This document shows positions 8,668-16,248 of a stretch of DNA of 64,000 nucleotides, piece after piece (position 1 is the stretch's first letter; each line of letters starts with the position of its first letter). The stretch is from Bradymonadia bacterium (GTDB lineage Bacteria > Myxococcota_A > Bradymonadia > UBA7976 > UBA1532): the NCBI GenBank assembly GCA_046290225.1, contig JBKAGE010000053.1:7834-71833 (forward strand), read 5' to 3'. Made by a program: the position numbers and the translations under genes. Under the pieces are notes generated by a model. It saw only the letters and a program-made list of their open reading frames with translations. It did no database searches and was not told the DNA's origin.

Positions 8668-8769
8668 GGTGCAAATCGCGAGATCCGCAAGATAGCGGAA
8701 GGATCCGCGGGTTGTAAGGGCACTGGGGCACAGCTATAGTCTGCCGGTTCGTATTGCTGGGAAGAGAGG
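8668..8769. promoter_or_regulatory. Divergent intergenic promoter region between the pentapeptide-repeat gene and the FHA/AAA operon.
   Basis: About 100 bp of non-coding sequence between divergent starts. No motif assigned. Confidence 0.4.
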
Positions 8770-10869
8770 ATGCCGAGTCAGGCGAAGCTGATTTACGTGG
8801 ACGATGGGGGTCGCTCCCAAGAGATCGTCATCACCCCTGGTGGCGAGATCACCATTGGCCGCCACCCCGCGTGCGACATCACTGTCTCGCACTCTGCGGT
8901 CTCCCGGAAGCACGCGCGGTTTGCCTTCCAGGGCGACACCGTCGTGGTTCAGGATTTGGGCAGCTCGAATGGCACCTTCGTCAACGAGCAGAAGATCACC
9001 ACCCATTATCTGAGCCACAACGACAAGGTGCGGTGTGGCAACTTCCCCCTCGATTTTCTGCTGCTCCAGGGCGGCGGAGGGGTGAAGCCCATCGGGCCCA
9101 TGAAGCCCGCGGGGCAGGTGAAGCCCGTGGGGCCCATCAAGCCCTTGAGCATCAAGCCCAAGCGGTCGAGCGTGCGGCCCACTGGCGGCCGGCCCACAGT
9201 GAACTCCCTGCCGCCTGATCGACCGACGGCCCCTCCGGGGATTGGCCCGATGTCGCCCACTCCGGCCATGCCCGGGGGTCCCAGCGTCGCCGAGGTCTCG
9301 GCCCTCAGAGGTCAGCTCAGAGACGCTGAGGGCGCGCGCCTCGACCTCGAGCGGCAGGTGGCTTCGCTCAAGGCTCAACTCGCCGACACGCAGGGTGGGC
9401 GCGCCGACACTGATCGCGAGCTGGCTGACCTGAGGCAAGACGTCGAGGGCCGCACCCGCAAGGTGAAAGAGCTCGAGAGCGAGCTGGCCCGACGGGCGCA
9501 GCAGGCCGACATGGCCACCCAGCGCACCATCGATCTTGAGCAACAGGTGAGTGAGCTTCGGGGCAACCTCGAGGTGGTCCGGGGCGAGCGCGAAGATCTC
9601 GAAGTCGAGCTCGCACGGGCCCACGCTCGGGCGGATGATCTCGCTCAGGGCAACGAGCTGACCAGCCAGCGCGAGAGTGAGCTCGCCGAAGACGTGAACC
9701 GCCTCAAGCGGGAGATCCGGCAGAAAGACAAAGAGCGCCTCGAGGTCCAGAACCAGCTCGGCGCTGTGGAATACGATCTCTCTGCAGCCCATCAGAAGAT
9801 CGAGCAGCTCGAGCTGGCCATGCAGGACACCGACAGCCAGCGCGGTCGCCTCAACGAGCAGCTCGAAGCCTTCAAGCAGATCCTCACCGAGAAAGAGGAC
9901 ATGATCGAGCACCTGCAGGGGGAGCTGAGCCGGACCGAGTCCTGGCTCGCTCAGGCCCAGGCAGAGGCCGAGCGCCCCGGCGAGATGCTCGCCCAGGCTC
10001 GCCAGGAGCTCGAGCGCTTGCGCAACGACCTCGCAGAGGTGCAGCTCAGCCGCGAGGCCCTGCTGCACAAGATCGAGCGGTACGAAGACGAGGTGCAGGC
10101 CTACAAGCGCGAAGCCACCGAGCTCGACCAGGCCCTCAGGCAAAATCAGGTCGAGCTGCAACAGGCCCGCGCCGAGATGGAGCAGGCCCAGAAGCAGGCT
10201 CAACAGGCCCTGCGTCAGAGCACAGGCCCCAAGAACTCACGTGATCTCATGGAGCAGCTCAACGAGCTGCGCCGGGCCAACCGCGATCTCAAGCGAGAGG
10301 TGGCGGAACTGCAGGAGAGCGGCGGTGGGGGCGGCGAGGACGACTCCGCGGTCCAGGCTTCCATGGAAGCCGCCGATGCCGCCCGTCGGGCCGCAGAGCG
10401 GGCCCGCGATTCTGCAGAAGAGGGCCGCCGCCTCGCTGAAGAGCAGGTGTCCAGCCTGCGCCGTCGGGTGCAGGTGCTCCAGCAACGGGCCGGGGCCATT
10501 GAAGAGGCCGCCGCGAAGGCACCAGCACCTGCGCCTCAGGCCTCCGGTGACTTCGACGCCTTCCGCCGGGAGGCCGTGGCCCTCTACGAGCAGATCAACG
10601 ACATGGTGAGCAACCTGCGTAACAACGTGGATGTGGTCGCCGACGGCATCGATGATCTCAAACCCCTCGATGGGGCCCTCGGCGAGCAGGCCGGGGAAGA
10701 TGATGCTGGCTGGGGGCGACGCATCAAGGCCTTGTCCCAGAAAGCAGATCTCGAATACTTCATTGAGTCCACCCCGGAGATGATGACCGAGGTGCGCGAA
10801 ACCGTAGACCAGTTCAAGCAAGTCCTGCGCAAGTTCAGGGACGTGCTCAAAAAACACGGATACGAATGA
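8770..10869 (+). CDS. FHA-domain protein with a Pro-rich repeat linker and a ~450-aa coiled-coil.
   Basis: N-terminal FHA (ITIGRHPACDITVSHSAVSRKHARF..GSSNGTFVNEQKI). VKPIGPMKPAGQVKPVGPIKP repeats. A long heptad-rich Glu/Arg/Leu/Gln segment follows. AGAGAGG upstream. Confidence 0.85.
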   Translation: MPSQAKLIYVDDGGRSQEIVITPGGEITIGRHPACDITVSHSAVSRKHARFAFQGDTVVVQDLGSSNGTFVNEQKITTHYLSHNDKVRCGNFPLDFLLLQGGGGVKPIGPMKPAGQVKPVGPIKPLSIKPKRSSVRPTGGRPTVNSLPPDRPTAPPGIGPMSPTPAMPGGPSVAEVSALRGQLRDAEGARLDLERQVASLKAQLADTQGGRADTDRELADLRQDVEGRTRKVKELESELARRAQQADMATQRTIDLEQQVSELRGNLEVVRGEREDLEVELARAHARADDLAQGNELTSQRESELAEDVNRLKREIRQKDKERLEVQNQLGAVEYDLSAAHQKIEQLELAMQDTDSQRGRLNEQLEAFKQILTEKEDMIEHLQGELSRTESWLAQAQAEAERPGEMLAQARQELERLRNDLAEVQLSREALLHKIERYEDEVQAYKREATELDQALRQNQVELQQARAEMEQAQKQAQQALRQSTGPKNSRDLMEQLNELRRANRDLKREVAELQESGGGGGEDDSAVQASMEAADAARRAAERARDSAEEGRRLAEEQVSSLRRRVQVLQQRAGAIEEAAAKAPAPAPQASGDFDAFRREAVALYEQINDMVSNLRNNVDVVADGIDDLKPLDGALGEQAGEDDAGWGRRIKALSQKADLEYFIESTPEMMTEVRETVDQFKQVLRKFRDVLKKHGYE

Positions 10870-15682: not shown

Positions 15683-16248
15683 GTGACGACGCCACCAGGG
15701 GCCCCACATCAGGGGGCTCCGCTGGCCTCGAGATCTCCCCACTCTCAGCCCGCATTCAAGCCGAAGCCGAGCATCGGTGGTTTCGACGACCCCATCTGGT
15801 GTCGATGTGGACCCCCTCTGGCGTCGAGGGTTTGATCCGAGGCATCAGCAGGCCCATTCAGGATCTCGCTCAGGTGGAGCCTGATCCCGAGGGCATGACC
15901 ATGCTCAAGGGCATCGACGAGCCTCGAGATCTCGAGCGCCCTTACGAGACCAATGAGCACCTGGAGACGATCACCCCGCAGTTCTTTTTGCGGAACACCC
16001 ATCGGGTGGAGCGCTTCGCCGATCCGTTGCAGCTCGATTTCTATGGCTACATGGAGCTCGGTGAGCGGGAAGACCCGTGGATCGACATCGAGGTGGCCCG
16101 AGTGTGTGGTGAAGGTCATGTGGAGATGGGCCTCGACATCGTCGAGCTGAGCAGTCAATTGGTCACCGCTCAGGTGGCGGACAAACATCGTCTTGTGGTA
16201 GAGACCGCGTGGGCCGATACCTTTGGCCGGGCAGACGAGGAGGACTGA
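15679..16248 (+). CDS. Hypothetical acidic protein, last gene of the operon.
   Basis: GTGA overlap with the previous stop. 189 aa, no recognised motif. Confidence 0.45.
   Translation: MSDDATRGPTSGGSAGLEISPLSARIQAEAEHRWFRRPHLVSMWTPSGVEGLIRGISRPIQDLAQVEPDPEGMTMLKGIDEPRDLERPYETNEHLETITPQFFLRNTHRVERFADPLQLDFYGYMELGEREDPWIDIEVARVCGEGHVEMGLDIVELSSQLVTAQVADKHRLVVETAWADTFGRADEED

Follow-up and report, generated by a model that had tools for sequence, protein, structure and literature searches.

The locus described here raises the question of what a Ycf46-like AAA+ ATPase, two small proteins of the DUF1257 and DUF2997 families and a protein with a phospho-threonine-reading FHA domain do when they are encoded together. 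It lies in a 64-kb stretch of a Bradymonadia bacterium genome (contig JBKAGE010000053.1; the whole stretch of 64,000 nucleotides is hereafter termed the window), in which an operon of six coupled plus-strand open reading frames (ORFs), termed g1 to g6, extends over positions 8770-16248, as defined from the ORF list and by direct reading of the sequence (Table 1). The three central genes, which encode the ATPase (g2), the DUF1257 protein (g3) and the DUF2997 protein (g4), belong to an AAA-DUF1257-DUF2997 module that is conserved, widespread and uncharacterised across many bacterial and archaeal phyla. The evidence presented below suggests that g2 may act as a protein-remodelling motor dedicated to the small pair.

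The family assignments proposed in an initial annotation of this DNA were confirmed by a Pfam scan, in which four products scored above the curated cut-offs. They comprise g2 with AAA (PF00004; 100.2 bits against a cut-off of 21.2, E 1.6e-28), g3 with DUF1257 (PF06868; 91.1 bits against 22.2, E 6.1e-26, spanning profile positions 1-102 of 103), g4 with DUF2997 (PF11211; 70.8 bits against 24.1, E 8.5e-20) and g1 with FHA (PF00498; 73 bits against 20.7, E 2.7e-20), the last displaying coiled-coil and SMC-type matches besides. No Pfam family was found for g5 and g6. The six plus-strand genes are all present as predicted and translationally coupled, since ATGA, TGATG and GTGA overlaps are read directly at the g1/g2, g2/g3 and g5/g6 junctions, respectively, with a GGAGG Shine-Dalgarno sequence ahead of g3. 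The gaps of 4-10 nt that had also been described reduce to a single one of 4 nt between g4 and g5, the 10 nt at the g3/g4 junction being an overlap. Likewise, the start formerly placed at 8668 is the first base past a divergent pentapeptide-repeat gene (g0); the true first start is the ATG at 8770, which an in-frame stop precedes. A sigma-70-like promoter match at 8712-8740, within the 102-nt spacer, is the sole match in the 8.4 kb between 8300 and 16700, and no plus-strand terminator-like sites were detected within the operon.

The ATPase retains intact Walker A, Walker B and sensor-1 Asn motifs and Arg fingers (RKGRFDE), and it belongs to the classic AAA clade, in which it is most similar to Cdc48, FtsH and PAN. 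The same elements, together with the pore loop, are conserved in 102 g2 relatives from the fetched loci described below; the pore loop is a conserved Leu-Val-Gly and is not aromatic. The homologues listed for g2 share 59-96% identity with it, lie mostly in metagenome-assembled genomes (MAGs) of Myxococcota and are named in databases at COG level only, as “SpoVK/Ycf46/Vps4 family”, and g2 matched no Ycf46-specific model in NCBIfam. The description of g2 as a single-module ATPase did not survive structural modelling. In the structure model residues 1-215 display an AAA-like fold without Walker A, and NVL and Rix7, which are tandem AAA proteins, can be aligned with the complete model over 375-382 residues. 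This N-module has neither a GK[ST] P-loop nor a DE Walker B and contains the sequence ..RDFHP.., while hhalign of the N-half against the C-half recovered only the lid-start motif (E 0.059). Because the N-domain folds like an AAA module yet has no P-loop or Walker B, g2 is, as judged from the model, a pseudo-tandem AAA protein, in which the D1-like module is degenerate and D2 is active. A true tandem (type II) AAA protein of the Cdc48/NVL type was considered and rejected; both halves match in fold and the N-module is without nucleotide-binding motifs. Two or three Ycf46-like AAA paralogues surround one DUF1257 gene at loci L015, L078, L090, L092, L093 and L103.

The product of g3 begins with MSHF and contains a V-R/K-G-aromatic hairpin tip, followed by DWWG and RYAYH. 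Residues M1, S2, H3 and Tyr96 are invariant in 46 diverse DUF1257 relatives, Gly60, Asp73 and Gly109 are nearly so, and the motif [VI]-[RK]-G-[YFW]-x-G, located at the tip of the predicted hairpin, is well conserved. The N-terminal Met-Ser-His signature has also been described for Ycf35 (PMC13060386). The DUF1257 family is small (765 cluster representatives at E <= 1e-3), and the listed homologues of g3, most of them from Myxococcota MAGs, are 57-95% identical to it. In g4 the motif G-x7-G-x2-G-x2-C (G15, G23, G26, C29) is conserved in 102-104 of 104 relatives, Cys29 being kept in 103. Taken together, the Met-Ser-His end, the Gly-aromatic hairpin tip and the invariant Cys look, from sequence conservation, like a reactive or ligand site. 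In one protein of 331 residues (P0267), two tandem DUF1257 copies follow a hydrophobic N-terminal segment and the first copy has an internal SHF, so that DUF1257 may sometimes do without a free N-terminus. Two candidate relationships were discarded: a weak sequence match of DUF1257 to BMC-H was not borne out by the fold, and weak matches of DUF2997 to designed beta-trefoils and acyl carrier proteins are short turn-motif similarities. Outside cellular genomes, the cyanomyoviruses P-SSM2 and P-SSM5 carry DUF1257; in P-SSM2 (L126, PSSM2_178-179) DUF2997 is directly upstream of DUF1257, both being annotated as hypothetical, with purM and a ferredoxin gene near.

Conservation of the locus was assessed in 120 loci, fetched with a degenerate DNA pattern for MSHF...DWWG (requiring a TCN Ser codon and DWWG) at one genome per species, which represent a sample and not a census. 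Fetched loci are fixed 8-kb blocks, such that the absence of a gene near a block edge is uninformative and all neighbour counts are lower bounds. They were annotated with hidden Markov models (HMMs) built here, and of the noisy six-frame single-linkage clusters, which include shadow ORFs of GC-rich DNA, only those confirmed by Pfam were used. Of the 70 Myxococcota loci, 66 have an AAA gene no more than 3 kb from DUF1257, as do 4 of 5 Planctomycetota, 2 of 3 Verrucomicrobiota and 8 of 9 Methanomicrobiales loci; a nearby AAA gene was also found in individual loci from Actinomycetota, Acidobacteriota, Hydrogenedentota, Sumerlaeota, Armatimonadota and Bacteroidota. The trio displays three gene orders across phyla, namely AAA-DUF1257-DUF2997 in Myxococcota, DUF1257-DUF2997-AAA in Planctomycetota and Verrucomicrobiota, and DUF1257-AAA in Methanomicrobiales. 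It is contiguous in Myxococcota, Planctomycetota, Verrucomicrobiota, Actinomycetota, Acidobacteriota, Methanomicrobiales and two cyanobacterial plasmids. The plasmid AAA genes beside DUF1257/DUF2997 match an HMM of the g2 N-domain at 2e-44 to 5e-47, and their products share 42-44% identity with g2 along the entire length. On a further plasmid, NC_015386 of Treponema succinifaciens (L125), DUF1257 is found at 8218-8625 amid tail sheath, tail tube and baseplate J/V genes, a cluster that looks like a contractile injection system or a prophage tail module.

Within Myxococcota the cluster extends beyond the trio, and the expectation that it would be conserved in related genomes was upheld, with the same order in other Myxococcota MAGs and conservation far above chance. 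One MAG (L001) retains the whole order, comprising a pentapeptide gene on the minus strand, the FHA/coiled-coil gene, AAA, DUF1257, DUF2997, a gene for a long acidic protein, a g6-like gene and rne; a second (L002) displays PP2C, pentapeptide (minus strand), FHA, AAA, DUF1257, DUF2997 and g6-like genes. The position upstream of rne holds as well, rne being located downstream, 316 nt past g6, and also following the g6-like gene in L001. Kofleriaceae and Haliangium loci are rearranged and present a multi-FHA gene, AAA, DUF1257, DUF2997, a DUF4157/eCIS_core gene with an HExxH motif, a pentapeptide gene, a second protein gene and a small TPR gene, after which PP2C and g6 are encoded on the opposite strand. 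The DUF4157/eCIS_core protein, which carries a zinc-peptidase-like HELTH motif, is encoded at 3579-4208 of L030 and was found in 42 other Kofleriaceae/Haliangium loci. FHA and PP2C genes thus remain linked to the trio throughout Myxococcota, rearranged loci included, which supports the initial annotation, and the survival of accessory linkage through rearrangement argues for function. FHA, pentapeptide, PP2C and g6-family genes were found near the trio in Myxococcota loci only, with the exception of a pentapeptide gene in a Clostridia-labelled MAG.

In other lineages the small pair is accompanied by other partners. The trio had been taken for a cyanobacterial module, which was not confirmed, as 6 of 6 chromosomal cyanobacterial loci (L004, L020, L049, L058, L079 and L111) are without a nearby AAA gene; instead, in all six the DUF1257-DUF2997 pair is immediately preceded, on its own strand, by a gene for an Hsp70-like protein (~530 aa; PF00012, 2.4e-39). 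Chloroflexota are similar: 8 of the 10 loci have an Hsp70-like gene no further than 7 kb from DUF1257, and most of the 10 are without an adjacent AAA gene; it is directly upstream of DUF1257-DUF2997 in L033, L040, L076, L082, L089 and L098, and also in L124. Both types of ATPase meet in a Methanoregula operon (DUF1257-AAA-WD40-Hsp70-like-DUF2997) and on a Pseudanabaena plasmid with the arrangement grpE-Hsp70-DUF1257-(two inserted genes)-DUF2997-AAA-HEAT/WD40, the AAA of which is 44% identical to g2 over its full length. Furthermore, an NrdG-like radical SAM activase is encoded beside DUF1257/DUF2997 on the same strand in ~25 loci, mostly of anaerobic lineages. They include all Methanomicrobiales, most Chloroflexota, and Planctomycetota, Spirillospora, Sumerlaeota and Acidobacteria loci (among them L005, L014, L021, L024, L033, L040, L043, L044, L064, L073, L076, L097 and L107). 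The activases match Fer4_12 with E-values of 1e-31 to 3e-34, and TIGR02491 at 89-116 bits, under its cut-off of 126, in 4 of 5 tested. No anaerobic ribonucleotide reductase gene was seen beside the activase in the loci inspected gene by gene, a point that was not checked systematically.

Published work on DUF1257, DUF2997 and Ycf46 is consistent with a setting of chaperone and redox functions. In cyanobacteria a DUF2997-ycf35-fed7 cluster has been described, and Fed7 binds a DnaJ-like protein (PMC4284462), while ycf35 and ycf46 were lost together in freshwater red-algal plastids (PMC5940233). The cyanobacterial ycf46 operon is stress-induced, an slr0374 mutant displays reduced EcaB carbonic-anhydrase activity, linking Ycf46 to CO2 use, and an interaction of Ycf46 with KaiC that affects circadian timing is cited; nothing beyond these points was found for Ycf46. 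For DUF1257 and DUF2997 no function was found in the literature searched, in agreement with the initial annotation, nor any description of the two as a system; the families are known as names only.

Turning to the accessory proteins of the Myxococcota version, the Arg, Ser and Asn residues of g1 predicted to bind phospho-threonine can be read in GR, SRKH and SSNGT within residues 27-89. A related domain of ~80 residues (..VYExINDxLSExRNN....LRxLRDLA) invariably forms the C-terminal end of the protein encoded immediately before AAA, and it corresponds to residues ~600-699 of g1; there the motif reads ..LYEQINDxxSxLRNN..LRxFRDxL, and it is common to the gene upstream of AAA across Myxococcota. 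A PP2C gene had been reported near the operon and is present, with matches above the cut-offs (PF13672/PF00481; PP2C_2 54.6 bits against 24, PP2C 34.5 bits against 20.3); its product is 44% identical to the copy in L002, and in Kofleriaceae/Haliangium loci the PP2C gene adjoins a g6-family gene. The list of six components given earlier is correct as far as it goes and missed the pentapeptide gene, the small TPR gene coupled to it and the status of g6 as a family. In 47 of the 70 Myxococcota loci a pentapeptide gene accompanies the trio, and small TPR genes equivalent to that of the window are present in L001 and L030. The C-terminus of g0 (RRFHNLEFD) resembles the AAA tail: similar peptide ends are encoded at 12420-12452 (AAA) and 7468-7500 (pentapeptide) of the window and in loci L002-L123, RFxxLE[LF]D ends are conserved on the pentapeptide or pentapeptide-associated protein, g2 itself ends in an R-x-x-L-E-hydrophobic type of sequence, and the Kofleriaceae counterparts are ARFSLLELD and, for the AAA, ERKLEL. 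This common C-terminal peptide suggests a shared docking site, for which a TPR receptor would be one candidate. Related R-x-[LIV]-E-[LIV] tails also occur on AAA proteins of other phyla.

The two remaining proteins differ in their distribution, and the earlier placement of both in a conserved cluster stands for g6, a Myxococcota-wide family, and not for g5, which is clade-specific. The g5 product, with 31.8% Ala, 21.8% Glu and a net charge of -182, is Ala/Glu-rich and 877 residues long as reported; it is, however, polyanionic, interrupted by a single basic block and closed by a basic tail, rather than a balanced polyampholyte. It begins with a MWQSIVNFFRRIFGG helix, has its one Lys/Arg block at 166-200 and ends in a basic Gly/Ser/Lys/Pro tail. 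The counterpart in L001 displays the same architecture (MWQxIVxFFRR helix, acidic block, Lys/Arg block, Ala/Glu helix region and Gly-rich basic tail), and among the fetched loci the N-terminal motif was found in only 8, all Bradymonadia-like. A database search with g6 returned only 3 homologues at the sequence level and showed it to be identical to a hypothetical protein from a Bradymonadia MAG. An iterated HMM built on the fetched loci detected the family in 27 loci, either after DUF2997 or beside PP2C, and its wider extent is therefore provisional.

The surroundings of the locus are of a housekeeping type, with rne, prfA and rho downstream and the PP2C and pentapeptide genes upstream. The 316-nt untranslated stretch from g6 to rne (16249-16564) is probably the rne leader, and no Rfam family was detected in 8000-17000, this leader included. 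Just upstream of PP2C, a plus-strand ORF of 152 residues with a lipoprotein-type signal (..LVGAGC..) occupies 5711-6169 and shares an ATGA overlap with the preceding nucleotidyl-transferase gene; in L002 an ORF 28% identical to it holds the same position ahead of PP2C.

Table 1. Features of the operon and of its upstream neighbours, in window coordinates.
Feature	Position	Strand	Length	Description
PP2C-type Ser/Thr phosphatase gene	6227..7009	+		Pfam PP2C_2 1.4e-14
Small TPR gene	7019..7471	-	150 aa	4-nt overlap with the end of g0; Pfam TPR_19
g0	7468..8667	-		Pentapeptide-repeat protein, divergent from g1; Pfam Pentapeptide 3.3e-22
Spacer	8668..8769	no strand		Divergent spacer between pentapeptide gene and g1; promoter-like site and GGAAGAGAGG Shine-Dalgarno before ATG 8770
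g1	8770..10869	+	699 aa	FHA residues 27-89, long coiled coil, conserved C-terminal domain ~600-699
g2	10866..12452	+	528 aa	Ycf46-like AAA+ ATPase; degenerate D1-like N-domain 1-215 (model), active AAA ~226-470
g3	12452..12847	+	131 aa	DUF1257 (Ycf35 family)
g4	12838..13044	+	68 aa	DUF2997
g5	13049..15682	+	877 aa	Ala/Glu polyanion, clade-specific accessory
g6	15679..16248	+	189 aa	Myxococcota-wide family, core motif TPQFFLRNxxRxE

These observations are most simply accommodated by an AAA+ remodelling machine that is reserved for a DUF1257/DUF2997 complex and, in Myxococcota, is subject to control by Ser/Thr phosphorylation, a reading to which we give an even chance. That the operon encodes ATP-driven remodelling controlled by Ser/Thr phosphorylation, as the initial annotation suggested, is a reasonable inference. 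The motor would be g2, presumably a hexamer like related proteins, in which a D1-like ring free of nucleotide would be stacked on a D2 ring that hydrolyses ATP and carries the Leu-Val-Gly pore loop. As obligate partners of g2, the g3 and g4 proteins would contact one another, most likely in a heteromeric complex, and the motor would assemble, reset or pass on this complex, which could be a client of g2 or an adaptor. DUF1257 and DUF2997 would represent an ancient nucleus, which elsewhere relies on an Hsp70-like ATPase together with GrpE and is in many cases found with an NrdG-like activase, on which Myxococcota would have added a regulatory and scaffolding layer. In that layer control would presumably run towards the motor: g1 would read a phospho-threonine mark, its conserved C-terminal domain would couple the signal to g2, and the PP2C phosphatase would erase the mark. 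The pentapeptide protein, by carrying a copy of the C-terminal tail of the motor, may together with the small TPR protein and g6 modulate docking, and g5 may act as a clade-specific acidic scaffold or client.

Several points weigh against this model. The non-aromatic Leu-Val-Gly pore loop means that full substrate threading by g2 is not assured. A writer for the presumed phospho-threonine mark is lacking in the 64-kb window, where a regular-expression scan returned no Ser/Thr kinase of the Hanks type, and no Hsp70-like, GrpE or activase genes were found in the window or in Myxococcota loci. Structure comparison of the DUF1257 model revealed no informative structural relative, and the sequence does not discriminate between DUF1257/DUF2997 as client, adaptor or effector. 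Finally, the assignment of the small TPR protein is barely above threshold (TPR_19, 25.1 bits where the cut-off is 25; E 2.3e-05).

The activase-associated loci invite a different explanation, in which the DUF1257/DUF2997 complex would contain a protein radical or a redox/metal centre that the activase installs and the ATPases present or repair, the Myxococcota version being an aerobic derivative under phospho-control. The recurrence of the NrdG-like activase beside the pair, the near-universal Cys29 of DUF2997 and the [VI]-[RK]-G-[YFW]-x-G motif at the predicted hairpin tip of DUF1257, which we take to resemble loosely the RVxG[YF] glycyl-radical loop, are consistent with this proposal, as is the Fed7 ferredoxin gene adjoining the pair in cyanobacteria (PMC4284462). 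The activase is nevertheless absent from the window, from all Myxococcota loci and from the cyanobacterial loci, and it is missing in every aerobic lineage sampled except Spirillospora. The DUF1257 motif is one position off the glycyl-radical signature, it is kept in aerobes, where a glycyl radical would be destroyed, and there is no cofactor-binding Cys cluster. With neither an activase nor the signature motif, this locus does not encode a recognisable glycyl-radical enzyme and activase pair, and we regard the radical/redox-cofactor explanation as unlikely. There is a similarly small chance that the pair forms an unrecognised reactive complex, perhaps bearing a protein radical or a redox/metal centre, which the NrdG-like enzyme would activate in anaerobes and which Ycf46-type AAA+ and Hsp70-like motors, the latter with GrpE, would assemble, present or repair in organisms from methanogens to cyanobacteria and plastids (Ycf35, Ycf46); the present operon would then be an aerobic offshoot brought under Ser/Thr phosphorylation. 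ATP-dependent degradation was considered as well, with the AAA+ protein unfolding substrates for a peptidase, either the DUF4157 HExxH protein of Kofleriaceae or DUF1257 itself through an N-terminal Ser-His exposed after Met removal, for which HslV-type N-terminal nucleophiles provide an analogy. The similarity of g2 to Cdc48, FtsH and PAN, the HExxH gene directly following DUF2997 in 43 loci and the invariant Met-Ser-His N-terminus of DUF1257 would fit such a machine. A DUF4157 gene was searched for in the window and not found, the DUF1257 model does not display an N-terminal nucleophile (Ntn) hydrolase fold, one tandem DUF1257 protein has its SHF internally and the pore loop is non-aromatic, which makes degradation very unlikely.

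A role in conflict with invaders is likewise unlikely. Here, the ATPases and repeat proteins (WD40, TPR, pentapeptide, FHA) would form a nucleoside triphosphate-dependent sensing or thresholding device, a theme that resembles the systems of PMC7159879. The patchy spread of the module, favouring Myxococcota, Cyanobacteria, Chloroflexota, Planctomycetota and Actinomycetota, its variable gene order and the AAA paralogues at some loci point in this direction, together with cyanobacterial plasmid copies among toxin-antitoxin, OLD/RloB-like and zeta-toxin genes, the eCIS_core HExxH gene of the 43 Kofleriaceae/Haliangium loci and the tail-gene setting of DUF1257 on the Treponema plasmid. Against it, PADLOC returned only generic AAA (IetA, TRIP13) and coiled-coil (JetC, LmuB) matches, with none for g3-g6 and no system, and DUF1257 is rare on mobile elements (5 of 50,697 phage and 3 of 72,556 plasmid records). 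The very high sequence conservation and the stable synteny with rne are unlike fast-evolving defence islands, ycf35 and ycf46 are retained in plastid genomes, the window contains no nuclease or other effector domain, and the module is not among the systems of PMC7159879. That the genes are chance neighbours or over-called ORFs is scarcely credible. DNA of 65% GC does yield many long spurious ORFs, and g5 and g6 are without a Pfam family; this explanation is, however, already contradicted by the conservation data, in which four genes have strong Pfam matches, the order recurs in other MAGs and phyla, the g5 architecture and the g6 motif are conserved and g6 exactly matches an annotated protein.

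Comparison with known systems delimits what is particular to the remodelling machine favoured here. Ycf46 (slr0374 / Synpcc7942_0417) resembles g2 in its length of ~500 residues and in presenting one active C-terminal classic AAA domain after an N-domain of ~220 residues, whereas the chromosomal cyanobacterial ycf46 belongs to a three-gene operon of its own, without FHA, PP2C or pentapeptide partners. The cyanobacterial Ycf35-DUF2997(-Fed7) cluster has both small families adjacent and in the same order as g3 and g4, with the Fed7 ferredoxin as an extra member in some genomes; unlike the present operon, it has an Hsp70-like partner upstream and no linked AAA, FHA or PP2C gene. Relative to Cdc48/p97, NVL/Rix7 and Pex1/6, the N-module of g2 is without Walker A and B and there is no N-terminal double-psi barrel; Cdc48-type proteins partner ubiquitin adaptors, while g2 partners DUF1257 and DUF2997 and carries the Leu-Val-Gly pore loop. 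In type VI secretion, control by Fha1, PpkA and PppA together with ClpV joins reading by an FHA protein, erasure by a PP2C phosphatase and remodelling by an AAA+ protein, all encoded together as at this locus. In contrast with that system, this locus has no secretion-system genes, no kinase in the window, an AAA of another clade and an FHA protein with a long coiled coil. The conflict systems of Kaur et al. 2020 (PMC7159879) likewise combine a chaperone ATPase with repeat or scaffold proteins and are enriched in multicellular-type prokaryotes; they are built on MoxR-vWA or GTPases, and DUF1257, DUF2997 and Ycf46 are not described there. The operon is best viewed as an AAA+ remodeller with dedicated partners under phospho-control, with a modest chance that its nucleus is something more unusual.

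Ycf35 (DUF1257) and Ycf46 have been conserved ORFs without a function since the first plastid genomes, and DUF2997 is equally blank. The data presented here provide a common context for these families, in which protein-remodelling ATPases of two types and, in many anaerobic lineages, a radical SAM activase accompany the small pair, while the Myxococcota version offers a regulatory handle through its FHA reader and PP2C eraser. If the housekeeping interpretation is true, the module would represent an unstudied branch of the chaperone network common to bacteria, archaea and plastids; if instead the pair forms a radical complex, a testable function would become available for two plastid ycf genes that have long lacked one.

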